NCBI GenBank assembly: GCA_938002085.1
Contig: CALLAT010000074.1
Location: 21,173 to 85,172 of the forward strand
Reading direction: 5' to 3'
Source of the DNA: an uncultured Pseudanabaenaceae cyanobacterium
GTDB lineage: Bacteria > Cyanobacteriota > Cyanobacteriia > PCC-9006 > JAAUQQ01
DNA: 64,000 nucleotides
In this document: positions 5,601-64,000 of the stretch, piece by piece
Numbering within the stretch: position 1 is the stretch's first letter
How the letters are laid out: each line of letters begins with the position of its first letter
The notes under the pieces: model-generated
The model's database searches: none
Told to the model about the DNA's origin: nothing
The model's input: the letters and a program-made list of their open reading frames with translations, nothing else
Position numbers and translations under genes: made by a program

Positions 5601-7400
5601 TTCGATATGGCAAGGAGAGAGCTCTGAATTATGGACATCATGAATGACAGAGATTTTCCCATCTCGATATTGAGACCCCTTGGTCTCTTGCATATAGGAG
5701 TCATTCCATCTCTTTCGAGTAGCTAGAATCGTATCCTTCCAGCCCACACTGACAGTGCCAAATTCATCGACAAACTCTCCTCCCCAGTCTGGGTCGAAGC
5801 GAAAGACTGCAACGCGGTCCACTTTCAACAACTGCTGCATCTCTTGGGTGGCAGTCTTGAATAAGTCGCGCATTTCCAGGGGCTTCTGGAGTTTTGCCAG
5901 AATATTCGCGAGGGTCCGTTGCTGATTGGCGATCACGGTCGAATGCTCCAGCTCTACCGTGCGAATACGCACTTGCCGCTCTAGGTTGCTATTGAGCGCC
6001 TGGACCTGTTGATTGAGCTGGAACTGCTTCACTGCCACAGAAAAGCGTTCTCCCAGAGAGCGAATGAGGCGCTGTTCCACATCAGTCCATTTCTGAGCTT
6101 GCCCTTGCATCACTTGCCGCCAAGCATCAAAGGATTGGCGAGGAGCCAACTGGCGCTCATCCGGCGCGTGATAACCAGCCCAGGTAATTTCCTGATCGAT
6201 GGCATCACGGAAAATGGTCAGGCAGCCAATCAAGCTTCCACCATAATGGAGTGGACAAATGAGGAGACCTCGCACATCCGTTTCTTGAAAGTGGGGGGAG
6301 ACCGATCGCAAAAGCGGCTCTTTATACAAGTCTGCGATCGCCCAAACCCTGGGCGACTCCCCGACGACGGAATGGGCCAAGGGATCTTGGGCATAGGTCG
6401 TCTTCATCCAAGCCACAGACCAGGGCTCTAGTTGCTCAGACTCTGCACTCCGATTCAATGTGGACAGCAAATACCGCTGCCAAATTTGATGCTCTTCTAC
6501 GAGACGGAGCTGCCCTCCCACATCACCTGGCAAGAGCGTGGGTTGACTACCCACCTGATACACCGTCGGGGGCTGATGAGCATTGGCTCCAAATAGATAT
6601 AGACGTCCACCCGAACCTTGATACACCGCCACAGTTTCATTCAGGGCTTGTTGCAACTGCACCTGAGCGGGCGTATATAAAAGCGCGGTCACCCGATTAA
6701 GCTCAGCCTCTAAACGGGCCTGTTCTCGCACCTTCTCCAACAGCACAGACTGGGAGATGGCCACAGAGACCTGATCCACCACCAGCTGAATAAAATCCAG
6801 TTCTGCTGCCGATACCGTTCGAGGTTGAGCGTTGTGAGAGATCAGGAGCCCCCACAACTTGCCGACTTTAGGTTGACCCGTCTCTTCTTGGGCAACTGCT
6901 CCAGATTGTTCCAAAACGATGGGAACCACGACGGAAGATTGGACCCCCATAGCCAGTAGGTACTCTAAATGGCAGGGGTCAATCCTACGAGTGCTCAACT
7001 GGGTATAAACCCAAGCAGAGCAGGATTTTTCAGGATCTAACTGGCTCGTAAAAACAGATTTTTTGTCAATTTCAACAATCGTTCGCTGCCGCTGCTGTAA
7101 GAGCAGCTCACGGGTGTAGGGAGGAATATCATCAACGGGAAAATGCAGGCCTTTAAGGGGAGGCAGGTTCTCTGCATTTAGGGCTTCTGCAATCACCCAG
7201 CCATGGCCATCGGGTAAAAACTGATAGATTTCGACGCGATCCGTTGCGAGGTAATCTCGAACTTCCGCCACTGTGGTGGAGAGGATTGCTGGCAGATCGA
7301 GGGAATTTCGAATTCGGTTGGTAATCCGATTCAGCAAAAGTTGTTCCGACGTCCCCGTAGAGGCGGACCGGACGAAATTGGAGAAACTATGCTGATTCAT
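2640..7400 (-). CDS. Multi-GAF phytochrome-like hybrid sensor histidine kinase (GAF-PHY, GAF, GAF, HisKA-HATPase, REC, REC, HPt)
   Basis: 1586-aa ORF with ATG at 7400. Motifs read by eye: phytochrome GAF (HFPVDDIPPYTREL; DPCHLEYLLAMGVQSSVVVPI); PHY tongue (WAG...PRQSF); two further GAFs (DRVAVFRFDPDWGGEFV...SPCHIEVLEHYCVQAYMIAPLF; DRVAIFRF...SCYREMLQKFEIKANLVAPLF); H-box MSHELRTPLNAILG; ATPase boxes GNALKFT, DTGPGI, GTGLGL; two receivers (ILVVEDKAVNR...MDMRMPVMDG; ILVAEDELSNQ...LDFQMPGLTG); HPt-like QLAHHFKSFVGNQG. Confidence 0.9.
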   Translation of the reverse strand: MNQHSFSNFVRSASTGTSEQLLLNRITNRIRNSLDLPAILSTTVAEVRDYLATDRVEIYQFLPDGHGWVIAEALNAENLPPLKGLHFPVDDIPPYTRELLLQQRQRTIVEIDKKSVFTSQLDPEKSCSAWVYTQLSTRRIDPCHLEYLLAMGVQSSVVVPIVLEQSGAVAQEETGQPKVGKLWGLLISHNAQPRTVSAAELDFIQLVVDQVSVAISQSVLLEKVREQARLEAELNRVTALLYTPAQVQLQQALNETVAVYQGSGGRLYLFGANAHQPPTVYQVGSQPTLLPGDVGGQLRLVEEHQIWQRYLLSTLNRSAESEQLEPWSVAWMKTTYAQDPLAHSVVGESPRVWAIADLYKEPLLRSVSPHFQETDVRGLLICPLHYGGSLIGCLTIFRDAIDQEITWAGYHAPDERQLAPRQSFDAWRQVMQGQAQKWTDVEQRLIRSLGERFSVAVKQFQLNQQVQALNSNLERQVRIRTVELEHSTVIANQQRTLANILAKLQKPLEMRDLFKTATQEMQQLLKVDRVAVFRFDPDWGGEFVDEFGTVSVGWKDTILATRKRWNDSYMQETKGSQYRDGKISVIHDVHNSELSPCHIEVLEHYCVQAYMIAPLFVDQKLWGLLGAYQHERVRTWEESEVSFLSQVATHLGVALQQSQSIEKVKLQSEALASAAEQQRILNTVIKKIRDSLELTTIFTTTTSELRRLLNADRVAIFRFLPSQDYKAGKVVAEDVEGDYPAALNQFIEEPCFFDDKYKNQKTQEQIYFINDVEQAEAQSCYREMLQKFEIKANLVAPLFDGETLWGLVCIHQCSGPRFWNEKEKELTRQIATQLGIAIQQAKFLSETEAARQAADSASQAKSRFLATMSHELRTPLNAILGMAQLLNRDASLTEQQCQRLNTIGQSGEHLLSLINGVLAMSRIEAGEAQLEDNLIHLPVFLSTLEDMLENTAISKQISLKFELANDLPEYVVADEGKLRQILINLLGNALKFTEKGSVTLKSSVSCAVDSSEEDDSAGNLTLNFSVQDTGPGIASEELGIIFEAFAQTQAGVDSHEGTGLGLTICRQFIELMGGNISVESEVGVGSSFHFSIQAGRAAQAQNEKMVAPARQVMGLAPDQPTPKILVVEDKAVNRLLLVDLLLDLGFEVREAVNGQEAIQQWQTWSPALIWMDMRMPVMDGYAATRKIKALAQEHPPVIVALTANAFEEDHQIALEAGCDDFVRKPFQEQDLVETLAKHLGVRYRYADGAVADANGGSESVAMAAKVAIASAAGADADTSVRPKTAPALLNILVAEDELSNQRVMQEMLTYLGHQACIVSNGLEAVEACKAVAYDLLMLDFQMPGLTGPKAVQQIRALYDDSSQPFIVGVTGTAIAEGSDEFATSGMDQILQKPISLEMLESLFRDWFESHGMAGQVVEERLTPAQGKEAVGSQPLSPTATPPSNEVTPAVLEKRYLFNTYHTLYGDKAAPKIVESIQAFLQDWPGHQVELEAAIATHSHEEVFQLAHHFKSFVGNQGGADLSEVCRLLETEARSEHPDYPELEARLKHETQRLELALTLELEQYQRQIEGADSEASESPSCAVETA

Positions 7401-24217: not shown

Positions 24218-27200
24218 TCACCCCGTGTTCCGCATACCCGCTGCAATACCGTTGATGGTGAGTAGAGCACCGCGCAATAGTTCCCCCTTGCTGTAGCGCG
24301 ATCGCGCCATGCCCATGCGGGTCTGGGACTTGTGCTGGCGCAGTCGCTTCAGCAGAGATACCTGCAGGAAGCCCAGGGGCACGATGGTGCCATTGCGCAG
24401 CTGCACTGAGCGCTGGAGGCTGGGGTCACCATCTAGGAGACGCTCATGGCGCGCAATGCTCAGCACTAACTCCCGAGTGAGATTGTATTCATCCTCAATT
24501 TGCTTGAAGACCTTGTAGAGGCGATCGCGATCCTCAGGCTTAGATAGCTCATCCACATAATGCTCAGCAATCTGCATATCCACCTTCGACAGCGTCATCT
24601 CCACCTTGGAAATAACCATCTTAAAGAAGGGCCATTTGTCGTAGAAATAGCGCAGTAGCAGCAGGTTACGTTCAGGGCGCTCATCCACAAAAGACTTAAG
24701 CGCACTGCCCACACCGTACCAAGCCGGTAGCAAGAAGCGGCTTTGAGTCCAGCTAAACACCCAAGGAATGGCCCGCAGGCTACTCAGGTCTTTTTTGCCA
24801 GACTTGCGCCGGGCAGGTCGAGAGCTGATTTGCAGCTGACTAATTTCTTCAATGGGAGTCACCTGGTGGAAAAAGTCCAGTAGGTCAGGCTGCTCATAGA
24901 TCAAAGAGCGATAGTGGTTGCGAGACTGGACCGACAGATTCTCCATAATGTCGTTCCAGGAGGCAATGTCATCAAAACCACTGTGGAGCAGGCTGGCCTG
25001 GATCACCGCCGTGGTGATGGTCTCTAAGTTGTAAAGCGCCAGCTCAGGCAAGGAGTACTTCGAGGCCAGGACTTCGCCCTGCTCAGTAATCTTGATGCGG
25101 CCATCGATACTACGACTGGGCTGGGCCAGGATCGCTTCGTAAGCTGGACCACCGCCACGACCCACGGACCCACCGCGACCGTGGAAAATGCGCAGAGCCA
25201 CGCCGTAGTTATCGGAAATCCGGTGCAGCGCTTTCTGGGCCTTGTGGATTTCCCAGTTACTGCTGAGGAAGCCAGAATCCTTATTGCTATCGGAATAGCC
25301 CAGCATGACTTCCTGCAACGGTAGTCGCTCCGGGAACTCGGCCTTCGGTCGTTCTCCTTCACCCCCATCATTTTCAGCCTCTGCCGCATCAGGCTCCGCC
25401 TTGGCCTGCTCATAGCCATCCTTTAGGAGCGCAGAGTAGAGCGGCATACGGAACAGGTCATCCATCACCTTGGGAGCCCGGCGCAAATCTTCCACTGTTT
25501 CGAACAGCGGCACAATTTGCAATCCGCCTTTGCCCGTCACGGGATCATACAGCCCGGCTTCCTGGGACAGGAGCAGCACCTCCAGCATGTCGCTGACATC
25601 CTGGCACATGCTGATGATGTAGGTCTGGCAGATCTCTGGGCCAAACTCCAGCTGGAGCTGACGCACCACCCGGAAGGTTTCGATGGTTTCCCGAGCGGTG
25701 TCAGAAAACGGCAGTTCTGCGGGGGCGAGGGGTCTGCGGTTAGACAGCTCCTTCACCAACCAATCCACTCGCTCTGCTTCGTCCATTTCCCGATAGGGCT
25801 TGGGCAAGATTTGCAGGTAGCTGGTGATCTCGTCGATGGTGGCAGAATGGCGGGAGCTTTCCTGGCGAATGTCCAGCAGGGCTAGGTTAAAGCCGTAGAT
25901 TTCCACCTGACAAATCAGGGTTTCTAGCTCGTAGCAATTCAGGCCCGTTGCCTCAACGCTGCGTTGGATCAGCCGCAACTCCTCCAAGAATTCAGCTCCG
26001 GAGTGATAGATCATCTCCGATTGGGACTCAGCCAGATCGTGATCCAGCACATCCAGCTTGTGGACGATTTTGTTGCGAGCCAGGGTGTTTTTGAGGCGCT
26101 GCTTAATGTAGGCCAACTTGAGCCGGTAGGGCTCCTGGCGATAGCGAATGGCGAGGTTTTCGTAGACCTCGGGCATGTCAGCCTGCTCATTTTCCAGAGA
26201 TTCAAGCAGCTCTGGCAGCACTTCACTCCAATGGAGGGACTGACTCAGCAGGTTTTGTAGCTGACGCACCGCATTGAGGTACTTATCCAAAACGATGCCG
26301 CGCTGGTAGCAAGCCGTTTGCCAGGTGACCTGGGGGGTTACGGAAGGGTTGCCATCGCGATCGCTGCCCACCCAGGAGCCAAAGCGACAGAAGTTCTGGT
26401 GGGGCACCGTCAAAGATTTAAAAGCATCCCCCAAAGCTCCCTGACAACGCAGGTAGAGCTGGGGAATCACATCAAACAAGACCTCCTGGAAATAATGGAG
26501 GGTGTAATCCACTTCATCAAGGACCGTGGGCTTGAACTGATGTAATTCATCGGTACGCCACCAGAGCCGAATCTCCTCGGTCATTTGACGGCGCAACTGA
26601 TCCACTTCCCAGGACTTCCCAGGGTTGATCACCCCTTGGGATTCAAGCTGATCGAGCTTACGCAAGATGCCCACAATACGCCGCTGCTTATCGCGAATAG
26701 TGTGGCGCACAATTTCCGTGGGGTGAGCCGTAAACACCAAGCGAATATCCAGCTGCTCCAGCATGTTCTGAATTTGCTGGGGGGGGACGTTGAGTTGCTT
26801 CAGTTTGGGAAACAAACTGCGGAAGGTCTCAGGCTGGCTGATGGGAGGGCAATCGCCAGTCTTGTCCTGCTGGCTCATCCAGCTTTCATCAGACTCAAAA
26901 TCTGCCGTATCCCGAGCCGCCTCTGAGATGGGATAGTAGCGATCTAATAAAGATTCATTGTCAGTCGGAGCCTGGGCATCAGCCTGTTCATAAGCATCGC
27001 GATGCTGCTGCTGCTCATAATGCTGCTCAACAATATTGATCAGCTGGAAATACAGCGCAAACGCTCGAGCAGAGCGGATCGCACTATCTAGATCTAGCTT
27101 TTCAACCACATGGAGCAAGTCTTGCTCCACTGCTTCAGCCTGGCCTTCTGGCGAACTGAGGTCCCGAAGCTGAGTCAACAAGTCAATCAGCTCTTGGCCG

Positions 27201-27370
27201 CATTCCTGTCGCAAAACCGCTTCCCACTGGTCCTCCACGAACTTGAGGCGGTGGCGCAGAGCCAGATCATTGGCGGAAGTGGCGTTAGGAGTCACAGAAG
27301 ATTCTGACGGGGTGGAATTAAGCAGGTCGAGGTTAGACGCGCCGTCCGGCGATTGCAGACTGGGGCTCAT
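24218..27370 (-). CDS. ppc: Phosphoenolpyruvate carboxylase
   Basis: 1050-aa ORF with ATG at 27370. Hallmark motifs [32 protein letters not shown], and the C-terminal ...AAGMRNTG. Confidence 0.95.
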
Positions 27371-36425: not shown

Positions 36426-38390
36426 ATGAGACTGCTAAAACAATTGTGGAAACGTCCTCGTCAAGTTGTTTGGCTCCTCAGCTTAATGTTATTGCTCCCG
36501 CTCAGCTTTTGCCTTTTGCCTCAATTACGATCTGCTAGCTCTAACCTGTCCAACTCAAGCCGTGGGGTTAATGAGCAAATTCTGGTCGATCAGTTTGGCT
36601 GGCGATCGCAATCCACGAAAGTCGCTCTGTTCGCCAATCCTCGCGAAGGGCAAAACAAGTCTCGGCATTATCGTCCCGGCCAAACTTTTGAACTACGCCA
36701 GGCCCATGACGACACCCCGGTATACCAAGGGGAATTAGTGGCCTGGCAAGGCGGAAAAACGGATGAATCATCCGGCGATCAGGTCTGGTCTGCGGATTTC
36801 TCTAGCATTGAGACAGCGGGGGAGTACTACATTTACGATCCCCAAACCCAGCAGCGCTCCTATCCTTTTAGAATCCAAGACAATCCCTACAGCCAAGTAC
36901 TCAGCGCTGCAACCAAAGCCTTCTACTACCAGCGATGCGGCACAGCCATAACTGCACAGCAGGGGGGCAACTGGAGCCACCCTCCCTGTCATCTTGGTCG
37001 GCGACAAGACCTAAAAGCAGCTCGCTATGGCAGTGGCAAAGAACCCCGAGATGTTCATGGTGGCTGGCATGATGCCGGAGATTTCAATAAATATCTGCCT
37101 TTCACCGCCAAAACCCTGTGGCACCTCTTTGATGCCTATGAGCAAAATCCCCAGGCGTTTAACGACCAGCAAAATATTCCCGAAAGCGGCAATGGCGTCC
37201 CCGATCTTCTAGATGAAGTGAAGTGGGAATTAGACTGGATGCTGCGCATGCAGCTAGAGGATGGCTCGGTGGCCAACCGGGTGGCCACTGCGGGTGAGGG
37301 AGACCCCATGCCCCACGAGGATCGAGCAGCACGTTACTACACCGAGCCTACGACCTGGGCTACCTCTGCCTTTATTACTGGAGCAGCTAATGGAGCCAGG
37401 CTCTTTGCTCCCTTTGAAGCGACCTATCCGGGCTATAGCGATCGCCTCATCGCCGCCGCAGAGCAAGCCTGGCAATTCCTAGACCGTCATCCCGAACATT
37501 GGCCTAGCGATGGCATCGACCATGGCAAAAAGCCCCCGCTCAGCCCAGCCTCCCAAGCCAATGAAGAAGGCAATGACGGGATGTTGAGGCTCTGGGCCGC
37601 CGCAGAACTGTATCGGGCGACGGGCAATGCAACCTATGGTAAAGCCTTTGAAACCAGGGCCGGTTTTCCAACATCAGCTCTGGCGGTCGAAGAACCTGAC
37701 AACAGCTTGTCCTTAGAGTCATTCGATCCTTATCAACATCTAGCCTTCATTACCTATGCTCGGACAGAGCATAAGTCTCCCCGTCGCCAGGCGATTCTCC
37801 AGCAGCTCCAAGCATCACTGCAATCCACCCTCAGCCAAATCAACAATTTGGATCCCCAAGGGGTGGATCCCTATCGGGCCTACATCGACGACTATCACTG
37901 GGGTTCGAACCAAAGCAAGGCAAGCTGGGGGCTGATGTTTCTCCTCGCGAAAGAATTAAAGCTCAAGGCATTTGAAGAAGACTTCCACCACAGCAATGCC
38001 GAAGAATATTTGCATTATTTCCATGGCAGAAACCCCCTGGGCTGGGTTTACCTCAGCAACATGGGCAAGAAGGGAGCCAATGCAGGCGCAGAGAAAAGTG
38101 TCATGCACCTCTATCACGGCTGGTTCCCCCCCCAAAGCCCCTACGATGGGGCGGATTCTAAATATGGACCCGCTCCTGGTTTTGTCACCGGCGGTCCGAA
38201 CCAGTACTACAGTGCCAAACAGGTCTCTCCTCCCTACGGTGAACCAGTTCAGAAAGCCTTCAAAGATTGGAATGTAGACAAGCAAGGTTTAGGGGTCCAA
38301 TCCCAGGCTCCCTGGGAAATAACCGAGCCCGCCATCTATTACCAAGCTGCCTATGTGAACCTGCTCTCCTACTTTGCCCAGGCCCAGTAA
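36426..38390 (+). CDS. Glycoside hydrolase family 9 (endoglucanase-type) with N-terminal Ig-like (CelD_N) domain
   Basis: 654-aa ORF with ATG at 36426. Signal/anchor VVWLLSLMLLLPLSFCLL. CelD_N-like ILVDQFGWRSQSTKVALF...ADFSSIETAGEYYIY. GH9 catalytic signature DVHGGWHDAGDFNKY. C-terminal WEITEPAIYYQAAYV. Confidence 0.85.
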   Translation: MRLLKQLWKRPRQVVWLLSLMLLLPLSFCLLPQLRSASSNLSNSSRGVNEQILVDQFGWRSQSTKVALFANPREGQNKSRHYRPGQTFELRQAHDDTPVYQGELVAWQGGKTDESSGDQVWSADFSSIETAGEYYIYDPQTQQRSYPFRIQDNPYSQVLSAATKAFYYQRCGTAITAQQGGNWSHPPCHLGRRQDLKAARYGSGKEPRDVHGGWHDAGDFNKYLPFTAKTLWHLFDAYEQNPQAFNDQQNIPESGNGVPDLLDEVKWELDWMLRMQLEDGSVANRVATAGEGDPMPHEDRAARYYTEPTTWATSAFITGAANGARLFAPFEATYPGYSDRLIAAAEQAWQFLDRHPEHWPSDGIDHGKKPPLSPASQANEEGNDGMLRLWAAAELYRATGNATYGKAFETRAGFPTSALAVEEPDNSLSLESFDPYQHLAFITYARTEHKSPRRQAILQQLQASLQSTLSQINNLDPQGVDPYRAYIDDYHWGSNQSKASWGLMFLLAKELKLKAFEEDFHHSNAEEYLHYFHGRNPLGWVYLSNMGKKGANAGAEKSVMHLYHGWFPPQSPYDGADSKYGPAPGFVTGGPNQYYSAKQVSPPYGEPVQKAFKDWNVDKQGLGVQSQAPWEITEPAIYYQAAYVNLLSYFAQAQ

Positions 38391-55478: not shown

Positions 55479-56291
55479 CTACCAAAGACCACGAACAGGC
55501 TCAGAGACAGGTTCAGAAGAGAACTCAGGCTCCTCTACAGCATTATTCAGCATTGGTGCTTCCGCAGTGGCAGCAGGCTCGATGGGCTCGACAGCCTGAA
55601 ACACTGCAGCTTCGGATTCAGCAGCAGCCATGTCATCGGCAGCCATGTCATCGGCAGCCATGTCATCAGCAACCATATCGTCAGCAGCCATAGGCTCTGC
55701 ATCGTCAGCAGCCAAGCGATTTGCCAGTTCGGTCGCCACAGATTCAGGCACCAGCACCTGATCGATCACATGGATAACGCCATTGCTACCCTGCACATCA
55801 GCCCGGAGGACCTGGGCATCGTTAACCATCACGCCGTCAGTGGAAACATCAACCATCAAGTTTCCAGCCAAGGTCTCAACATCACCTGTGCTCAGGTCAG
55901 ATGACAGCACTCCACCTTCAACAACGTGATAGACCAAAACTTGAGTCAACAAATCCTTGTTCTCAGGCTCCAGCAGAGCTTCTAAGACACCTGCAGGCAA
56001 GGCGTCAAAGGCTTCGTCAATGGGAGCAAAGACCGTTAGGGGGCCTTCACCAGAAAGCGCATCCACGAGGTCAGCAGCCTGAAGGGCGGTGACGAGGGTA
56101 TCAAAGGCTCCTGCACTGGTTGCAATATCAACAATGGAAGGCGCGCCTTGGGCAACTTGCTCGGTTACGGCACCGGCTTCAGTGGCTTCAATTTGAGCAT
56201 GGGACGCAGAAGAGAGACCTGTACCCAATGCGATGCTTGCACCACACAAGCTAATCGCGAGAAATTTCAAACCGTTGAGTGAAGAAGTCAT
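55479..56291 (-). CDS. Secreted fasciclin (FAS1) domain protein with acidic Met/Asp-repeat C-terminal tail
   Basis: 270-aa ORF with ATG at 56291. Signal peptide [21 protein letters not shown]1 motifs [30 protein letters not shown] and [12 protein letters not shown]. The tail reads [25 protein letters not shown]. Confidence 0.88.
55624..55692. repeat. 15-nt tandem repeat (about 4.5 units) inside the fasciclin gene
   Basis: Units gcagccatgtcatcg / gcagccatgtcatcg / gcagccatgtcatca / gcaaccatatcgtca / gcagccata... They encode (A/V)ADDM repeats on the minus strand. Confidence 0.85.
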
Positions 56292-57272: not shown

Positions 57273-59222
57273 CTATTCGCCATCCCCTTGGGGCTGACTG
57301 ACTGGCTGGGCATTCGATTGATTGCGCAATACTGGCTTAGCACCACCTCCAGTGGCAGGTTTACGCCTGCCAAATTTTCCGCCCTGGAAGTCACCGCTTT
57401 TAAAGCTAGGGCGACTCGATCGCCCACCGGCAAACTTTCGCTCCCCGCCGAATTTGCGATCGCTAAACTTACCGCCGGAAGGACGCTCATCAAAGCGCCT
57501 CGCCTTGCGATAGCGCTCACCACCGGAATAGGACGGAGCCGATGAAGTAGAACCGGCATCACCCTCTCGCAACGCAGGCTTAGGAATAAACCGCTTGCCC
57601 CCAGAGGACTGACCTCCAAACTTTTTGCCACCAAATTTCTGGCCGCCGAACTTATTGCCGCCAAACTTGGGCGCACCAAATTTCTTACCCCCCAATCGCG
57701 GCTTGCCATGAGATAAGCGGGGTTGAGGGGTGCGAGAACCACCACGAGAATCGCTACGGCCATAGCGCTGCTGAGGTCTTGGGCTAGGGCTGTGGCGAGG
57801 CTCAGGCTGATCCCACCAGCGACCTTCCATGGAAGATTCACTCGATTCGGAGGGTGTAAACCGTGACTCGCGGTTGTCTCGGCTGTCCCGCTGCTGGGGC
57901 TTGAAGGAATCTCTCCCTCGCCTCTGATCTGACCCCGTTCTTAAGCGCGGAGAGGCATTAGAGCTGGAGCGGTCCCTCGATTGTCCTCCTGCCAACTTAG
58001 GCTTTTCGCCTGAGGCGGTTCGAGGGGAGGGAGTCGGCGAGTAGTTAAAGGAGGGAGCATCTTGCCGCTTGGCTTCAAACCGAGACCCATTCGCCCTAGC
58101 TCGCAGGGGACCCATTTCATTGGGACCGGGACGGAAATTGCTGCCGCTGTCCTTACGGCCCTTGAAGGCAGCACCTTTGGCACCGCGCTCGGGCTTACCG
58201 CCTCGGGCAAACTTGCGCTCGCCCCCATCTCGGCCCCCTCTTTGGTCTCGGCCGCCGCGTCCATCCCGTCCACTTCTGCCATCTCGCCCATCCCGTCCGG
58301 GGCGCTCATGTCGCCCACCCTCTGAGGCCTGCCCCTTCTTGGAGAAATCGACTGCGGGTGTGGAAACCTTGCGACGGAAGAAGGCCGCATGGAGCGATCG
58401 CTTGGGTTTCGCATCCCCTGCTTCAGCGGTTGCTCCCTCAGCATCCGTCGCTTCCACCGCAGCAACCGTCTCAACCACAGGCGCATCTAACCTAGCCTGG
58501 GTCACTTGCCGATGCTGCTGCTTGAGATTACTTTCTGCGGCTTCAATCAGCACCACAGCTTGGGTGACAAATTCTTCAATCGTCTGAACCAAGATGGGCT
58601 GGCCACTGGTCTCCTCCTTTTGGACAAAGTAAGGGGGCTGCTGCAACCGCGCCTTGGCAAAGCCAAATTTAATCGCTTCCAGGGCTTCAGTTGTTTTAGC
58701 AACCCAGTCCGCATCGACTCCCGGCTTGGGGACAGACTGCCACAGGCCAGGCGCCACTTGGGTGGACTCGCTCAAACGCTCCAGGGACTGCTTCAGCTTC
58801 GTGATGCGGTTCTCTAAGCTAATTAAGGTGGTGCGAGTCAGCTCTAGCTCGGCGGTATCTTGGATCGCTTCTAGAGTCGTTAGGGTAATGCTGGTGCTGC
58901 GGGCCGCTTTGGTGGCCCCGCTGTCGAAGCCCGCATTGGAAAGCATTAGGGCGCGATCGCCCTTCACGTCCTTCATCACCTGTTTCAAGGCAAATACATC
59001 GGCCTTGGTGACCGGCGTATCCCAATGGCGACAGTCAATAATGCAGCGCGTCTTCACGCCGTACTGCTCGGCTTGCAGCCAAACATCAATACGGTGGTCG
59101 CCTCGGTTTCCCTCCACCGTCTTTTCCACTGCGACCTGACAGTCCAGCACCTCAAAGGGGAGTGCTGCGGCCTGTTTATAAGCTTTCCAATCCACGGGTC
59201 TCGTTCCTGCGCTGCTTGCCAT
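57273..59222 (-). CDS. Mrr_cat/PD-(D/E)xK restriction-endonuclease-like N-terminal domain fused to a helical linker and a ~380-aa Arg/Gly/Lys/Ser-rich low-complexity tail
   Basis: 649-aa ORF with ATG at 59222. N-terminus HRIDVWLQAEQYGVKTRCIIDCRHWDTPVTKADVFALKQVMKDVKGDRALMLSNAGFDSGA matches the Mrr_cat layout. The tail holds GRDGRDGRSGRDGRGGRDQRGGRDGG and KFGAPKFGGNKFGGQKFGGKKFGG repeats. Confidence 0.8.
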   Translation of the reverse strand: MASSAGTRPVDWKAYKQAAALPFEVLDCQVAVEKTVEGNRGDHRIDVWLQAEQYGVKTRCIIDCRHWDTPVTKADVFALKQVMKDVKGDRALMLSNAGFDSGATKAARSTSITLTTLEAIQDTAELELTRTTLISLENRITKLKQSLERLSESTQVAPGLWQSVPKPGVDADWVAKTTEALEAIKFGFAKARLQQPPYFVQKEETSGQPILVQTIEEFVTQAVVLIEAAESNLKQQHRQVTQARLDAPVVETVAAVEATDAEGATAEAGDAKPKRSLHAAFFRRKVSTPAVDFSKKGQASEGGRHERPGRDGRDGRSGRDGRGGRDQRGGRDGGERKFARGGKPERGAKGAAFKGRKDSGSNFRPGPNEMGPLRARANGSRFEAKRQDAPSFNYSPTPSPRTASGEKPKLAGGQSRDRSSSNASPRLRTGSDQRRGRDSFKPQQRDSRDNRESRFTPSESSESSMEGRWWDQPEPRHSPSPRPQQRYGRSDSRGGSRTPQPRLSHGKPRLGGKKFGAPKFGGNKFGGQKFGGKKFGGQSSGGKRFIPKPALREGDAGSTSSAPSYSGGERYRKARRFDERPSGGKFSDRKFGGERKFAGGRSSRPSFKSGDFQGGKFGRRKPATGGGAKPVLRNQSNAQPVSQPQGDGE

Positions 59223-59431
59223 CGCTAGCGTTGGGGGCGCTCTCGTGGCTTCTATTTATTCAGACTATCACCCCCCCTTGGGGAAGCAGCAACCGAGGCT
59301 TTTAATGAAGTAACTGTTATAAAAACAGCACCTTAATATACGAATGTCACCGAATCCACGAAGCTACGGCAGGGATTGAGCGGCTCAAATTAGAACGGTT
59401 TGCCACTCGGCAGAGTTGCGACTGGGTGTGG

Positions 59432-62131
59432 CTACTGGTTCAGTCCCAAGACTTCACTCGGCATCTGCAAATTTAGAGCTTGATAGGGTTCAGACTCGCC
59501 ATCGAGCCGGATTCCAGGGGCCGACAGAACCACATCATTTACGTACAGGGAATAGTCCCCTTGGGTCAGGGATTCCAAGTAATAGACCCCAGCCCCGTTG
59601 GTCACCGAAAGCTGACGTTGCCCCGAATCCTGATGAACGGCTTCTACCTTGGCTCCGCCTAGGGGCTGGCCCTGCTCGTCTCGCACCACGCCCGTCACGG
59701 TGTAAGACAGGCTCAACGGGATTTTAAGCTGGGTGTATTGGCCAGGAACCACCGTCACGGCATAGGCCGTTTCCGAGGCGGTCCAGTCTAGGGGGAGTCC
59801 CGCAGGGTCTAGATCCAAACGATAGCTAGCGGGCTCTAGGGGCACTGAAACGCCATCTCCCCCAGCGATGGATCGAAAACGATGGAGGCCGCGATGGTTA
59901 AGGCTGAATAGCTCATCAGCACCGGCGAGATGTAAAGGCTCATCACTGTCCTGCTGGCCATTGCCGTTTTGATCCAGAAAGGGCTGAACGAGGAGGCCCC
60001 CCTGCTGGCGCAGTTGCTCCTGACGGGGATCTCCAGGGGAGAGTTTGCGGTGGCTATTAGGTTGTACTCGCAACCGAGGGGTTAGGTTGACCGTGAAGCG
60101 ATCGCTGTTAGAAACGGCGGAAATGCCCTCGTAGCGCAGCCGCAGATCCAAACCGGGGATGATGGCAGTACCCAGTTGGGCGATAGCCCCCTGCCCCTGG
60201 GACCCCAAACCATAGCCCAGGCGAACGTTCCACAGCGACCGGCCATCCCCGACCTTCTGGCCGGAGCGATAGTGCCAACCAACACTGGCCAAATTCTCAG
60301 GGCTGTCATTCACCTCACGGGTTTCGTAGTCCAATTGCAGCTCGTGGCCTTGGTTCGACCGGCGATCGCCCAATTGATAGCTCAGGGCAGAAGTCGTCGC
60401 CGTATCATTGCCGCGATGGTCAAAGCTGAGGGCATTCCAGCGCGACGAAACGGACCAATTGGCCTTGAGATTGGTATCAACCAGGGCCGAGGCATAGGTG
60501 CTCAGTTCCCCCAGTTGGAAGGCAACCCTCGCGCCCGCATTGAGAGCCCCGTCGCGGCTGTTGCCTCCCGTGGTGAGGGTCAAAAATTTGTTGGTGCGCC
60601 ATTGGGCCTTGTAGCGCTGGGAAAAGCGATCGCCGCTTAGATTCAGCCGGAAGCGATCGTTGGGGCGCCAGCTCGCCCGGGCCGTCGCGTCCCAGTCGGA
60701 GTCGGCTTCCAAGCTGGCTAATGCTGCCAGAGATATATCTAGTTGATCAGTGGGCTGATAGAAGCCATCCAATAGAGCCCTTGGGCGATCGTCATGGACC
60801 AGCCCCGCCCCCAGCGTCAGCCGTTCGCCCAGGCCTCGCCGATAGGCAATACCGCCTTGGAAGCCATCAAACGAGCCCCATAAATCCGACTCCCGCTCCT
60901 GCTGTCGGTCAAAGCCTCCCGACAGAATCAGTGCCTGGCCTCCAGCGGGAAGCTGCCCCGGCATCACCGTAAAACTCGCTCGCCGCACCACCGGCTCTGC
61001 CGTGAGTTGCCCATCGGGATAGAGCAACAGCTGATAGCCACTGCCCGGCACCTGCTCAAAGCGATAGAGCCCGGAGGAATCCACCAGCACTTCATCCACC
61101 ACAGCCCGACCCAGCCCTTGGGTGAGCTGAACCAGAGTGCCAGGCTCCGCCTCTCCAGCAATCTCGCGGCCCACGCTCTCCGCCTGAAGGCGCTGCTGGG
61201 GGCTAAATCCCCCTGTGGCTGAGCTATCCGGCGCTTCAAAGCCCCAGCGACGAATCGTCGTCAAGCCCCAATAGTCATCCGTCGCTGCACTGGACCAAAA
61301 CGTCTGCTGAGATCCGGCGGCCCAATCCTGGGCTTCGCCCTGGCGCAGATACTGGGCTTCCTCTAGCTGCCAACTGCGGCGCTCCCCCAGCTCCGGCTGG
61401 TCCAGTTGCACATACCAAGCCCCGCCTAGGGCTGAGCCGATCGCCGTCAGCTCTCCCTCCACCTTCGTCTCCGATGCTCCTCCAGACTGCCGCCGCCCCT
61501 GCACATCAATCGACTGGGCCACCGCTGCGATTCCCCAGGGAGCAGGCGTCACCCTGGGCAAGCCTTCTAAAACCACAGGGGTCTCGTTCCCTGGGGCGCG
61601 TTTGCTGGCCACCGCCTCCCAGGGCAGCGTCAGTTCCAAAGCATAGTTTTCTAAATCGAACGCCACCTCAACGCCAAGCTGCTCCCGCAACTGAGCCACG
61701 GAGAAGGCTAAGCCCATCTCGCCATCAGTGGTGAGTTGACCAGGCTCGATGCGCTTGACCAGGGCCAGCGATCGCAATTCAATCCCCCCATCTTCCAGGG
61801 GCTGCATCATCATCTGCAAAGCCCTGGCGAGGCCATCTAGCGGCAAGAGCCATTGCTCTAGGTCTTGGGCTTGGCGGCCGTCCTCTGCTCCCAAAACAAG
61901 GAGGGTTTCACCTGTTTTAGACGAGAGCGTTGCCTGGGTGCGATCGCGCACCACTAGGCCCACAGGCATGAGCGAAAAGATCGCCGACTCCCCAACCTCC
62001 GCAGACAATGCCGGAGCTTCACTGGCTTCAAGAGCGGGCAGTTCCGTCGCCTGAGCCACCTCGGCGATCGCGAATCCTGAGCCGCTAACGAATAAGAGGC
62101 TACAGCTAAGTTGTGTGAGCAAGAATTTCAC
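59432..62131 (-). CDS. Putative outer-membrane fimbrial usher-like protein (FimD/PapC-like layout)
   Basis: 899-aa ORF with a GTG start at 62131, 14 nt after the chaperone stop, and a signal peptide. NTD-like LAFSVAQLREQLGVEVAFDLENYALELTLPWEAV. Plug-like REIAGEAEPGTLVQLTQGLGRAVVDEVLVDSSGLYRFEQVP. A long amphipathic beta-strand region. CTD-like YRLDLDPAGLPLDW...VTGVVRDEQGQPLGGAKVEAV...GVYYLESLTQGDYSLYV. Confidence 0.6.
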   Translation of the reverse strand: MKFLLTQLSCSLLFVSGSGFAIAEVAQATELPALEASEAPALSAEVGESAIFSLMPVGLVVRDRTQATLSSKTGETLLVLGAEDGRQAQDLEQWLLPLDGLARALQMMMQPLEDGGIELRSLALVKRIEPGQLTTDGEMGLAFSVAQLREQLGVEVAFDLENYALELTLPWEAVASKRAPGNETPVVLEGLPRVTPAPWGIAAVAQSIDVQGRRQSGGASETKVEGELTAIGSALGGAWYVQLDQPELGERRSWQLEEAQYLRQGEAQDWAAGSQQTFWSSAATDDYWGLTTIRRWGFEAPDSSATGGFSPQQRLQAESVGREIAGEAEPGTLVQLTQGLGRAVVDEVLVDSSGLYRFEQVPGSGYQLLLYPDGQLTAEPVVRRASFTVMPGQLPAGGQALILSGGFDRQQERESDLWGSFDGFQGGIAYRRGLGERLTLGAGLVHDDRPRALLDGFYQPTDQLDISLAALASLEADSDWDATARASWRPNDRFRLNLSGDRFSQRYKAQWRTNKFLTLTTGGNSRDGALNAGARVAFQLGELSTYASALVDTNLKANWSVSSRWNALSFDHRGNDTATTSALSYQLGDRRSNQGHELQLDYETREVNDSPENLASVGWHYRSGQKVGDGRSLWNVRLGYGLGSQGQGAIAQLGTAIIPGLDLRLRYEGISAVSNSDRFTVNLTPRLRVQPNSHRKLSPGDPRQEQLRQQGGLLVQPFLDQNGNGQQDSDEPLHLAGADELFSLNHRGLHRFRSIAGGDGVSVPLEPASYRLDLDPAGLPLDWTASETAYAVTVVPGQYTQLKIPLSLSYTVTGVVRDEQGQPLGGAKVEAVHQDSGQRQLSVTNGAGVYYLESLTQGDYSLYVNDVVLSAPGIRLDGESEPYQALNLQMPSEVLGLNQ

Positions 62132-62145
62132 AGCAGAACGGTGGC

Positions 62146-63024
62146 TTAAGGCTTTTGTACAGCAGAATCAGTCGATGCCAAATCCTTTGACCCAGAGCGC
62201 ACCGGAATCTCAACCTCCACAGCAAAGGGCTGCTGTTGCCCCTGCCAAGCTAACGTTCCGGTGAGCTGATATGGGCCAGGTTGAAATGGGTCGAGGCCCT
62301 CTAGGGAAAGCGGAATAAAGCGCTCATTTCCCGCCAACACCGTCATGGACTGCACCTCTCCAGCGGCAACTTCCGCTCCGGAACGGCTCAACTGCCACTG
62401 GCCCACTGGACGCGCCATGGCTCCGCCATCGTTTTGCACCTGCAACTGAAGCTGCTGCTTCTCTAAATTCCAACTTGCCGAGGCCACATCTAGCGCCGCC
62501 GCTGCATCACCGTTCTGCACATACAGCGTTGCCCCCACCCGCGTAATGATCCCCACGCCCTGCTGACCACTCGCCGTCGCCTGCAACGGCTCAGCAAACA
62601 GCACCGCCCGATACTCTGCCTCAGGCAAATCCGGTGCAAACCTCACCACATAACGCACTCGGCGACGCTGCCCCGGAGCCAGCACCAGCTCGCGGGGGGC
62701 AAATTGCAAATAGGGCACCAAATTGGCAGCATCCTCAACTTCCGCTGCCTCAGGCTCAATCGTGACCAAGCCCCCCTCAGGGGCATAGGTAAAGGGCTCG
62801 GCATAGAGGCGCACGCGCTGCTCCTCGCTGCCACCATTAATCAAATTAATAAATCCACTGGACTGACCACGCTGGGCTGACTCCTGCAAAATCAGCGGCG
62901 ATAGGCCCACCTGGGCGTTACTCGGCTTAGACGAAGCCAGCATAGCCACCCCAGCCGCGCAAACAGCGAAAGCGGACATCGTACTAAGTCGAAGAGAACG
63001 CCTAAGGAATGGGGTCGCAGCCAT
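62146..63024 (-). CDS. Putative periplasmic PapD-like pilus chaperone (divergent)
   Basis: 292-aa ORF with ATG at 63024 and a signal peptide (MSAFAVCAAGVAMLASSKPSNA). Two-domain beta pattern: VGLSPLILQE...GFINLINGGSEEQRVRLYAEP...LQFAPRELVLAPGQRRRVRYVVRFAPDLPEAEYRAVLFAEPL...ITRVGATLYVQ, then LQLQVQNDGGAMARPVGQWQL. Confidence 0.55.
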   Translation of the reverse strand: MAATPFLRRSLRLSTMSAFAVCAAGVAMLASSKPSNAQVGLSPLILQESAQRGQSSGFINLINGGSEEQRVRLYAEPFTYAPEGGLVTIEPEAAEVEDAANLVPYLQFAPRELVLAPGQRRRVRYVVRFAPDLPEAEYRAVLFAEPLQATASGQQGVGIITRVGATLYVQNGDAAAALDVASASWNLEKQQLQLQVQNDGGAMARPVGQWQLSRSGAEVAAGEVQSMTVLAGNERFIPLSLEGLDPFQPGPYQLTGTLAWQGQQQPFAVEVEIPVRSGSKDLASTDSAVQKP

Positions 63025-63267
63025 GGCAGCTTGAAGAGGTTAAGGGCAAAGACGATAGGCAAGGCTAGAGCAGCCTATATATGGTCATACCTAGCATTCC
63101 CATCTCCGTAGAATAATCAGCGCTTTGACTCAGCCTTTCTACAGTTCCCGAGCCATAAAAAATACGGAAAGGTCCCCCATCGGACCTCCCCGCATATACC
63201 GTCAATTTCATCACTGGGCACAACCGCTGCCCATGCAAACAATCAGTTGTGGGCAGTGATGAAACTC

Positions 63268-63296
63268 GCAAGCTTCCGAACCAATAGGAAGCTTGC
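63268..63296 (-). terminator. Perfect 10-bp stem-loop just downstream of the subunit gene (candidate attenuator/partial terminator)
   Basis: gcaagcttcc (63268-63277), loop gaaccaata, ggaagcttgc (63287-63296). It lies 28 nt after the subunit stop (63324) and upstream of the chaperone start (63024). Confidence 0.45.
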
Positions 63297-63323
63297 TAAA
63301 TTCCCTCAAACAACCTCTAAGCC

Positions 63324-63839
63324 TTAGTTAGGAACAATGCTTAGATCGACAGTAAAGTCATAGAAGCCAGCGGGCAGAGGACCACCTGGAGAAAACACAT
63401 CCAAAGCAACATTTGTCTGATCAAAGATTTGGCCATTAGCCAAGCCAGTAGAACCAAAACCGTTGCAAGGACCGTTGGCAGGGAATGAGCCAAATGTATT
63501 GCTGGTCATCTCAACAAAGCACTCAAGACCATTGAGACCGACAGGGTTAGAACCTGCAGCAGAAACTCCTTCAAAACGCAGTTCCACAGGGGAATTACAA
63601 GAGATGGCGCTCACAACAGCACTACTTCCGCCACCACCAGGAAAGTTGGGATTGGAGGATAGCGCGAAACCATCGGAAGCCAACACACCAGGAGTTACAG
63701 TAGCTTGATCACAGTTAGTATCGATGGAACCAGAGAAGTCCACAGGTACGGGAACAGGCTGGGCAGAAGAAGGCAATTGACAAAGAGCAGCACCGCTTAG
63801 AGCGAATGCAGCAACGGCTAACACACGAGAAAAACGCAT
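63324..63839 (-). CDS. Putative secreted fimbrial/SCPU-like fibre subunit
   Basis: The ORF track gives 63324..63866 (TTG). The ATG at 63839 gives MRFSRVLAVAAFALSGAALCQLPSSAQP (signal peptide). The ~145-aa Gly/Ser/Asn-rich mature part has 4 Cys. The C-terminal strand PLPAGFYDFTVDLSIVPN resembles the aGxYxxtvtvtv ending of pilin and spore-coat-U subunits. Confidence 0.45.
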   Translation of the reverse strand: MRFSRVLAVAAFALSGAALCQLPSSAQPVPVPVDFSGSIDTNCDQATVTPGVLASDGFALSSNPNFPGGGGSSAVVSAISCNSPVELRFEGVSAAGSNPVGLNGLECFVEMTSNTFGSFPANGPCNGFGSTGLANGQIFDQTNVALDVFSPGGPLPAGFYDFTVDLSIVPN

Positions 63840-64000
63840 AGAGAAAAGTCTTGGGAAGACTGGCAAAGAAAAATTAGAGATGGACTCCGTAACACCGGGA
63901 AAGATGCCGCAGAGATGCCCATGTCTCTAGATCTAGATTGCCCACCCTACTTACGCCATTTCTCCGAGGGGATACGGAATCTAATTATCACTGAGGTCCG

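Follow-up and report, generated by a model that had tools for sequence, protein, structure and literature searches.

Chaperone-usher (CU) pathways, by which Gram-negative bacteria assemble adhesive fibres on their surface, have been described in cyanobacteria for Synechocystis sp. PCC 6803, where CccS/AdhA (slr1667), CccP/ChpA (slr1668) and UshA (slr0019) were assigned to the pathway by their SCPU (PF05229), PapD_N (PF00345) and Usher (PF00577) domains (PMC4390875), and mutants were analysed for motility, adhesion and flocculation (10.1101/130278; PMC6755745). A similar annotated cluster is known from Nodularia (PMC5853447), and sigma (archaic) fimbriae are listed for Cyanobacteria (PMC4654587). 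Here we describe three genes at the end of a 64,000-nt stretch of DNA (the window) from an uncultured Pseudanabaenaceae cyanobacterium (GCA_938002085.1, contig CALLAT010000074.1, positions 21,173 to 85,172), which are likely to encode a non-classical CU-type assembly system. An earlier reading of the same DNA (the original prediction) had proposed a divergent CU operon at this place and had added that CU fibres were never functionally characterised in cyanobacteria, a statement which is contradicted by the genetic studies of CccS/CccP/UshA (PMC4390875, 10.1101/130278, PMC6755745).

The window locus resembles the Synechocystis system in phylum, in pathway type and in having a small secreted subunit (~175 aa), a periplasmic chaperone and an usher. 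However, clusters of the CccS/CccP/UshA type have significant matches to PF05229, PF00345 and PF00577 (PMC4390875, PMC5853447), whereas the window family has none. Since the window family lacks the domains by which those clusters are defined, it is therefore, judged by sequence, a separate and more divergent lineage, set apart by the described Pfam domain criteria. In addition, mutant phenotypes (motility, adhesion) exist for Synechocystis, while the window family is known from genes alone, and our literature searches found no description of it. The other systems used for comparison were the archaic or sigma type (CsuA/B-CsuC-CsuD of Acinetobacter, CupE of Pseudomonas, with SCPU subunits), the alternative or alpha type (EcpA-EcpB-EcpC, and CFA/I and CS1 with CfaA/CfaC and CooC) and the classical type (FimC/FimD and PapD/PapC). 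The three open reading frames (ORFs) of the window are as follows.

63866..63324, minus strand: subunit ORF, 180 aa from a TTG start; the ATG at 63839 gives 171 aa, the identical call in database protein P0068
62146..63024, minus strand: chaperone ORF, 292 aa
59432..62131, minus strand: usher ORF, 899 aa

All three ORFs are intact and, as originally claimed, lie in the same direction on the minus strand, with 14 nt between the chaperone stop and the usher start. The peptides on which the original prediction relied (PLPAGFYDFTVDLSIVPN, LQFAPRELVLAPGQRRRVRYV, LPEAEYRAVLF, RVGATLYVQ, SVAQLREQLGVEV, ENYALELTLPWEAV, IAGEAEPGTLVQLTQG, SSGLYRFEQVP, YRLDLDPAGLPLDW and VTGVVRDEQGQPLGGAKVEAV) were all recovered in the translations, and the order which it gave, namely subunit, hairpin, PapD-like chaperone and usher, is borne out by independent evidence from structure and synteny. 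Only 134 nt of the window remain upstream of the subunit ORF (161 nt if counted from its ATG), and because of this the cluster may be truncated at its subunit end.

A likeness to a CU system is seen in the predicted structure of the 899-aa protein, which was modelled by AlphaFold2 (AF2) without templates from a 28-sequence alignment (predicted local distance difference test, pLDDT, 76.9; predicted TM-score, pTM, 0.63). When the model was compared with the PDB by Foldseek, ranks 1-15 were all FimD or PapC (E 1.4e-25 to 1e-11), with alignments reaching ~920 columns across full-length FimD, and were followed by surface proteins with immunoglobulin-like (Ig) repeats. FimD and PapC head the structural matches because these are the ushers with solved structures, and the sequence identity to them is 10-13%, the range also found in the chaperone comparisons. 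In the model, the topology is that of the usher plan, with an N-terminal domain, six strands, an inserted plug, ~18-20 further strands and two C-terminal sandwiches, in line with the section-by-section likeness to FimD/PapC that had been proposed by eye; the barrel of known ushers has about 24 strands. The sequence then taken for the plug (IAGEAEPG...YRFEQVP) proved to be the beta-sandwich inserted after the sixth barrel strand, and it aligns to the FimD plug by hhalign. The domains were delimited as follows.

usher aa 1-49, minus strand: signal peptide and disordered linker (AF2/DSSP)
61628..61975 (aa 53-168), minus strand: N-terminal periplasmic domain, mixed alpha/beta (AF2 secondary structure), within the full-length FimD alignments
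61244..61537 (aa 199-296), minus strand: barrel strands 1-6 (AF2/DSSP), preceding the inserted domain
60980..61201 (aa 311-384), minus strand: plug or middle domain, a six-strand beta-sandwich in the barrel (AF2; hhalign to the FimD plug)
60065..60937 (aa 399-689), minus strand: remaining barrel strands, ~18-20 (DSSP, count inexact)
59750..60043 (aa 697-794), minus strand: C-terminal domain 1, a beta-sandwich (AF2) holding the invariant motif RLDLDPAG
59477..59737 (aa 799-885), minus strand: C-terminal domain 2 (CTD2), a transthyretin-like sandwich (CarboxypepD_reg; CooC_C below threshold; hhalign to FimD CTD2)

Sequence comparisons of the usher gave fainter signals. The single significant Pfam domain is CarboxypepD_reg at the C-terminus (aa 811-865, E 9.5e-15), a feature by which the window usher differs from the archaic ones and after which its homologues are named "carboxypeptidase regulatory-like domain-containing protein" in the source databases. 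Below threshold, the same C-terminal part matches CooC_C (E 0.0025), the model for the C-terminal domain of the usher of CS1 pili, a point of likeness to the alternative type; scanned one by one, 12 of the 28 aligned homologues have such weak CooC_C matches, and 19 of the 28 have weak matches to Big_6 in the plug region. NCBIfam gave nothing useful on the window proteins, the match of the usher to TIGR04056 (E 0.14) being confined to the CarboxypepD_reg domain. PDB searches with the usher, both as a single sequence and as a profile, returned zero usher matches and only an Ig/transthyretin domain of NOMO2 (E 0.17). By hhalign, the usher profile showed no significant similarity to the single sequences of FimD and EcpC, the latter aligning over a short C-terminal stretch only. 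When the window family and eight Escherichia coli ushers were each split into six segments, with the window boundaries taken from the AF2 model, five of the six rows had their best match in the cognate segment. The best cell of the matrix was that of the plug (25% probability against the FimD plug, E 7.5e-4, 55 columns), CTD2 reached 21.6% against FimD CTD2, and the N-terminal segment was weak, with its cognate best in the row; the sole off-row match is an 11-column chance motif. These segment comparisons suggest a weak yet collinear signal, and the plug and CTD2 matches are points of likeness to classical ushers, as is the overall architecture.

The 292-aa protein was likewise modelled by AF2 (pLDDT 74.7). 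Database homologues (cf. P0055 and P0056) suggest a start at M16 (277 aa), which may be the true one, and the signal peptide ends in SNA before QVGLSP. A lipoprotein was rejected as an alternative form of the chaperone, since FAVC makes a poor lipobox and conservation of the Cys does not extend to more distant homologues. The model consists of two beta-sandwich domains.

62512..62910 (aa 39-171), minus strand: domain 1, with kinked strand at P110, R139 in the F1 strand, disordered F1-G1 loop 149-161 and G1 strand R162-VGATLYV
62206..62493 (aa 178-273), minus strand: domain 2, with invariant R235 and Y252

Foldseek placed CsuC first (E 6.9e-11), followed by CfaA, EcpB, FimC and Caf1M, and most of the top 50 entries are CU chaperones, the sequence identity to the classical ones being 10-13%; ciliary Ig proteins are also in the list. 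The two-Ig-domain model and its best matches agree with the PapD-like chaperone of the original prediction, and two homologues from JGI carry the name "P pilus assembly chaperone PapD". Pfam and NCBIfam gave zero matches for the window chaperone. In profile searches of the PDB the best match was EcpB (5dfk, E 0.033), and hhalign gave 37% probability for EcpB and 24% for a profile of nine classical E. coli chaperones. The EcpB match is marginal; the residues which it brings together are among the hallmarks of the superfamily.

Pro60 of EcpB, which kinks strand D1, is the sole residue invariant across the CU superfamily (PMC4654587). The family-invariant P110 of the window chaperone aligns with it and sits at the break between strand segments 106-109 and 112-115. 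In non-classical chaperones, an arginine of the F1 strand (Arg89 in CsuC and EcpB) binds the C-terminal carboxylate of the subunit (PMC4654587), and HMMER and hhalign agree in pairing the invariant R139 (strand 136-147) with EcpB Arg89, in alignments that are statistically weak. The donor residues of EcpB are Ala111, Ala113, Ala115 and Ile117 (PMC4654587), and these four served to set the offset of 15 between the chain index and the numbering of that paper. In the window chaperone, the counterpart of the EcpB segment Ala111-Ile117 and strand Arg116-Val123 is the last part of the F1-G1 loop together with R162-VGATLYV (strand 163-171), the loop (149-161) being the one low-confidence internal segment of the model. 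At the sequence level, the correspondences to EcpB thus appear exact although the alignment scores are weak. We also propose, from conservation, that R235 and Y252 are candidates for the domain-2 pair represented by Arg174/Tyr196 in CsuC and Arg148/Tyr169 in EcpB (PMC4654587).

The original prediction could not place the Arg8/Lys112 pair of classical chaperones and took the system to be divergent. This fits the alignments above, because the chaperone appears to be of the non-classical (archaic or alternative) kind; the F1-strand arginine together with the lack of a recognisable Arg8/Lys112 pair is a likeness to the archaic type and a difference from the classical one. R52 and R162 are also invariant in the family, and the weak classical match (hhalign 24%) cannot settle individual residues.

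More distant relatives place this chaperone in a wider set. An exhaustive profile search yielded 78 cluster representatives at E <= 1e-30, 438 at <= 1e-10 and 3145 at <= 1e-3. The full-length proteins of the 1e-27 to 1e-17 tier (P0151-P0220, alignment A5) are unnamed or "hypothetical protein" at their source; scanned individually, four of 47 match PapD_N (best E 4e-4) and 10 of 47 match WxLIP_PGBD (best E 3e-5), and as a profile the tier matches EfmWxLIP1 (E 2e-7) and EcpB (E 0.003). These matches link the distant relatives to PapD_N/EcpB on one side and to the WxL-interacting proteins (WxLIP; DUF916/DUF3324) of Gram-positive bacteria on the other, which suggests a shared ancestry of both kinds of surface-assembly protein. 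However, WxLIPs act at the peptidoglycan surface of monoderms without an usher, while the window chaperone adjoins genes for an outer-membrane usher and a pilin-like protein, and the core chaperones of the window family are without matches to the WxLIP Pfam models. One distant relative, P0171, adjoins a 1105-aa protein with similar C-terminal domains (CarboxypepD_reg/SdrD_B). In that cluster (L083:1383-8032, GCA_030429585.1), the 1105-aa usher-like gene is followed by the gene of P0171, and small ORFs end in PGxYSGxFTITATII-type sequences (PGLYSGTFTITATII or PGTYSGSFTITATII), the canonical terminus of CU pilins. On these sequence relationships, usher-linked chaperones appear to make up a larger group with poor annotation, of which the window chaperone family is one branch.

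The small secreted protein, a precursor of 171 aa, has a mature length of 145 aa after predicted cleavage between SSA and QP, in agreement with the ~145 aa originally estimated, and four cysteines. Three segments of it were delimited.

63762..63839, minus strand: signal peptide MRFSRVLAVAAFALSGAALCQLPSSA, cleaved before QP (sequence reading; position kept in the family alignment; predicted cleavage site)
63714..63761, minus strand: N-terminal extension QPVPVPVDFSGSIDTN followed by Cys17, a candidate donor strand (family alignment)
63327..63368, minus strand: C-terminal strand GFYDFTVDLSIVPN, a candidate F strand whose terminal carboxylate would be the anchor point for the chaperone (family alignment)

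Pfam and NCBIfam gave zero matches for the window subunit, and its database homologues are few. An iterative profile run over the related loci, however, collected 137 homologous small ORFs, nearly all of which adjoin chaperone or usher genes, and motifs were counted on the 131 single-domain ones. The N-terminal extension has alternating hydrophobics around the invariant G37 (alignment A4), with F35 nearly invariant and C43 invariant; its consensus is QSVDVPFxGxV, and the core h-x-h-x-G-x-h is present in 96 of the 131. C43 and C81 (C17 and C55 of the mature protein) form an invariant pair in A4. In CsuA/B, a disordered donor strand is followed by Cys16, which is bonded to Cys62, and this pair is invariant in archaic pilins (PMC4654587), where it connects strands A and B. 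The window subunit shares with it the donor-strand-like N-terminus and the cysteine spacing; exactly two cysteines after the signal peptide are found in 82/131 subunits (median spacing 37). About a third of the paralogues, by contrast with archaic pilins, are without the pair: 44/131 have no Cys after the signal peptide and make up a second paralogue class (e.g. L044:3758-4234). The two-Cys and the Cys-free classes are often neighbours in one cluster, and they may be major and minor subunits. At the other end, G158 and Y160 are invariant in the C-terminal strand, for which the consensus is GxYxYxVTLTxxP (GxYxFxV in the window subunit), and the motif stands <=8 residues from the C-terminus in 119/131, mostly 2-3 residues. 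Pfam matches were all below threshold, namely SCPU in five of 66 members (best E 0.008), DUF4402 in two, and Fimbrial and Caf1 in one each; the weak SCPU matches are again a likeness to the archaic type. Compared with the PDB, the subunit profile matched only Caf1 (E 0.027-0.15), aligned on the C-terminal strand (Caf1 LAAGKYTDAVTVTVS). The sequence motifs fit a pilin-like protein, for which we infer an incomplete Ig fold.

An ORF of 305 aa precedes the subunit gene in the closest relative (L002:3190-4107, plus strand) and consists of two tandem pilin-like modules, each with a GxYxY-type end strand (...PDSYLYKVELVFTP, then ...PAGTYNYVVTLTLTP); similar ORFs of 284 and 318 aa are present in L013 and L012, respectively. 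The 305-aa protein is probably a tip subunit, and by analogy its window counterpart may lie just beyond position 64000.

The usher has 53 relatives in a large protein collection, from Nostoc, Calothrix, Moorena, Leptothoe, Gloeotrichia, Nodularia and a metagenome-assembled genome (MAG) of Synechococcus, with Methylococcales at ~33% identity, and 253 relatives in the species-representative genomes of a genome collection. Locus statistics were made on the best 79 of these 253, which are cyanobacterial except for two labelled "uncultured bacterium"; MAGs of uncultured Pseudanabaenaceae hold the nearest relatives, at 81% and 79% identity. In the majority of the 79 loci, the chaperone gene is directly upstream of the usher gene on the same strand with one to three subunit genes before it, and a subunit gene is sometimes placed between chaperone and usher. 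No other gene family is consistently linked across the 79 loci, the best being a DnaJ-domain protein (22/79). Many residues are invariant across the ~40%-identical orthologues of usher and chaperone, and a few related loci (L011, L014, L055) have split chaperone or usher ORFs. In the Rivularia MAG loci L004, L010 and L014 and in L062, two ushers of the family lie in convergent orientation within ~7 kb, and the second usher of the Rivularia loci has additional chaperone and/or subunit genes next to it. Paralogous clusters thus exist within one genome, like the fimbrial operons of enterobacteria.

The subunit and chaperone genes are separated by a spacer with the following elements.

63025..63323, minus strand: structured 299-nt spacer (minimum free energy and shuffles)
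~63268..63296, minus strand: hairpin 1 (fold of the spacer)
~63204..63266, minus strand: long hairpin 2 (fold of the spacer)
63162..63195, minus strand: terminator-like hairpin, 14-pair stem, followed by the T-run TTTTTTAT (terminator scan)
63025..63160, minus strand: conserved leader, ~130 nt, from the terminator to the chaperone start (comparison with L002 and L003)

The fold comprises three consecutive stem-loops, and its minimum free energy is -126.4 kcal/mol, compared with -92.9 +/- 4.9 in dinucleotide shuffles (z -6.85), none of the 200 shuffles folding as well. The hairpin of the original prediction is real, with its 14-pair stem and T-run at 63195..63162. A Rfam scan of 59000-64000 gave no family for the spacer, and a sigma-70 promoter scan gave zero sites. 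Both the terminator-like hairpin and the preceding long hairpin are kept in L002 and L003, in which the leader is ~95% identical, above the coding DNA (the encoded proteins are ~80% identical); it may serve as a promoter inside the cluster or have a regulatory role as a leader. Among related loci, a hairpin with T-run was found at 31/58 subunit-chaperone, 5/48 subunit-subunit and 19/57 chaperone-usher junctions; these are raw counts under loose criteria and over gaps of unequal length, with no shuffle baseline, and the sequences vary between lineages. In the fim and pap operons, the major subunit is followed by a hairpin, the chaperone and the usher, and attenuation keeps the subunit mRNA in excess. 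The order subunit-hairpin-chaperone-usher of the window resembles these operons, and by analogy the hairpin is probably an attenuation element holding subunit mRNA in excess, while a separate promoter in the conserved leader is an equally possible alternative.

Several observations weigh against a CU system. In 28 usher homologues, Usher (PF00577), PapC_N (PF13954) and PapC_C (PF13953) had zero matches at E <= 1; the same holds for PapD_N (PF00345) and PapD_C (PF02753) in 14 chaperone homologues scanned individually, and SCPU (PF05229) and Fimbrial (PF00419) were below threshold in every subunit member tested. By staying below the SCPU, PapD_N and Usher thresholds, the family departs from the archaic type, and by the zero Pfam matches and the 10-13% identity from the classical one. 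The whole-length hhalign comparison of the usher family with eight E. coli ushers was not significant (3% probability), and because of this the usher homology rests on the predicted structure; the lone alignment obtained was in the plug region, with the same pairing that the original prediction had made by eye. Whole-chain superposition of the usher and chaperone models gave TM-scores of 0.4-0.6 (usher 0.4-0.5) with large root-mean-square deviations, although low values are expected for multi-domain proteins and the five domains of the usher are freely oriented. An Enterococcus WxLIP, which shares the two-Ig-domain fold, scores about like CsuC against the chaperone model (Foldseek E 1.1e-10). 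A strong terminator stands between the subunit and chaperone genes, so that the subunit could be transcribed separately. Finally, the support is computational throughout, with folds that are predicted and hallmark alignments that are statistically weak. The original prediction had held that a lack of HMM (hidden Markov model) or structural similarity to CU families would speak against it; curated HMMs were indeed negative, while structural similarity is present. Its operon holds for gene order and strand, but simple co-transcription of all three genes is uncertain because the strong terminator-like hairpin splits the subunit from the chaperone.

The absence of matches to usher HMMs could mean that the CU likeness is superficial, the 899-aa protein being an unrelated barrel (a porin, a SusC/TonB-type transporter or a polysaccharide exporter) and the 292-aa protein a generic periplasmic Ig protein. 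SusC/RagA proteins, too, contain CarboxypepD_reg, the single Pfam domain with a significant match, and Ig-like folds are common, the chaperone model matching WxLIP and ciliary Ig proteins as well. However, TonB-dependent receptors, OprD-type porins and AlgE reach only E 1e-5 to 1e-4 in the Foldseek list, against 1e-25 for ushers, and CarboxypepD_reg is here C-terminal, where ushers have CTD2, whereas it is N-terminal in the SusC model (model positions 2-39). Ushers alone combine a sandwich placed behind strand 6 with flanking periplasmic domains, and the barrel gene is consistently linked to chaperone-like and pilin-like genes; we consider an unrelated barrel very improbable. A TonB-dependent or SusC-type transporter, which would have CarboxypepD_reg at the N-terminus, a TonB-dependent plug and a barrel of 22 strands, was in particular rejected, given the position of the domain (aa 811-865), the TIGR04056 value (E 0.14) and TonB receptors at ~1e-5 versus 1e-25. 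Still more improbable, in our judgement, is a reading of the cluster as the remnant of a CU operon, inactive or in decay, which the strong divergence from curated families, the terminator inside the cluster and the few loci with split ORFs might suggest; the three window ORFs are intact, many residues are invariant across ~40%-identical orthologues, 253 relatives exist in species-representative genomes, and the spacer is conserved too. The cyanobacterial tubular (CT) pilus cluster of Microcystis (PMC12397347) was also compared and rejected, as it has a pilin with a helix-turn-helix C-terminus and glycosyl- and methyl-transferase neighbours and is without a chaperone.

A more serious question is the form of the product. 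A CU-type machine might secrete no long pilus and instead build an amorphous coat or capsule like Caf1, or display single adhesins as proposed for AdhA/CccS in Synechocystis. The sole PDB sequence matches of the subunit profile are to Caf1, a capsule-forming CU subunit, the window holds a single small subunit gene, and the Synechocystis preprint favours secretion of an adhesin over a secondary filament (10.1101/130278). On the other hand, the conserved donor-strand-like N-terminal extension implies polymerisation, Caf1 itself being a donor-strand polymer, and the relatives have two to three subunit paralogues plus a two-domain subunit, a pattern typical of tipped fibres. We therefore regard a coat or displayed adhesin as unlikely, although our confidence in a long fibre is lower than that in the CU-type machine as such.

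For the preferred reading, a non-classical CU-type system, predicted folds, conserved residues and motifs, synteny and RNA structure were obtained in the analysis, whereas every binding and assembly step, and the fibre itself, we infer by analogy with Csu, Ecp, Fim and Pap. All three proteins would be exported by Sec. In the periplasm, the two-Ig-domain chaperone would bind the unfolded subunit, its G1 strand R162-VGATLYV filling the groove left by the missing subunit strand, while the C-terminal carboxylate of the subunit (...DLSIVPN) would be anchored by R139, probably aided by Y252 and R235. The complex would then dock on the N-terminal domain of the usher and the plug would vacate the barrel. 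By donor-strand exchange, the N-terminal extension of the next subunit (VPVPVDFSGSI) would displace the chaperone strand, and the polymer would pass through the barrel, with the last chaperone-subunit complex retained by both C-terminal domains. The terminator-like hairpin after the subunit gene would probably keep subunit mRNA above that of chaperone and usher. As the product, a thin adhesive fibre is most likely, its tip probably formed by a counterpart of the two-domain subunit of close relatives, which may be encoded just past the window end.

Adhesion, aggregation, mats, blooms and symbiosis of cyanobacteria depend on surface structures, and type IV pili dominate thinking about them. We tentatively propose that the window represents a divergent CU system which is missed by curated usher, chaperone and pilin models, occurs in several hundred cyanobacterial species and some Methylococcales, and may build an as yet unassigned cyanobacterial surface fibre, and whose chaperone family bridges PapD-like chaperones and WxL-interacting proteins by sequence, hinting at a common origin. 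If true, this widespread, unannotated second fibre-assembly pathway would be a candidate for unexplained fibres and adhesion phenotypes. The genes are now labelled "carboxypeptidase regulatory-like domain protein" or "hypothetical", and culturable carriers include Nostoc, Calothrix, Leptolyngbya PCC 7375 and Moorena. The family would also extend the sequence space of ushers and imply that HMM-based censuses undercount CU systems outside Proteobacteria, and the link of its chaperone to WxL-interacting proteins offers a lead on the evolution of assembly chaperones.

Downstream of the usher, at a distance of 209 nt and on the same strand, the window contains a 649-aa ORF (57273..59222, minus strand) with an N-terminal Mrr_cat restriction-endonuclease-like domain (aa 11-121, E 6e-11), followed by ~400 aa of low-complexity sequence rich in Arg, Gly, Ser and Lys with repeats such as GGKKFGAPKFGGNKFGGQKFGGKKFGG. 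L001 also has an ORF in this slot, and judged by the other loci the 649-aa ORF is outside the conserved cluster. A further predicted cell-surface or adhesion protein is encoded ~3 kb away from the cluster (55479..56291, minus strand), namely a secreted protein of 270 aa with a fasciclin domain (Pfam Fasciclin, E 4.6e-34) and a C-terminal run of AADDM repeats. Elsewhere, the window encodes a glycoside hydrolase family 9 (GH9) cellulase with a CelD_N Ig-like domain (36426..38390, plus strand), a phosphoenolpyruvate (PEP) carboxylase (24218..27370) and a 1586-aa phytochrome/GAF hybrid histidine kinase (2640..7400). These surroundings form an ordinary chromosomal context, consistent with a cyanobacterium.

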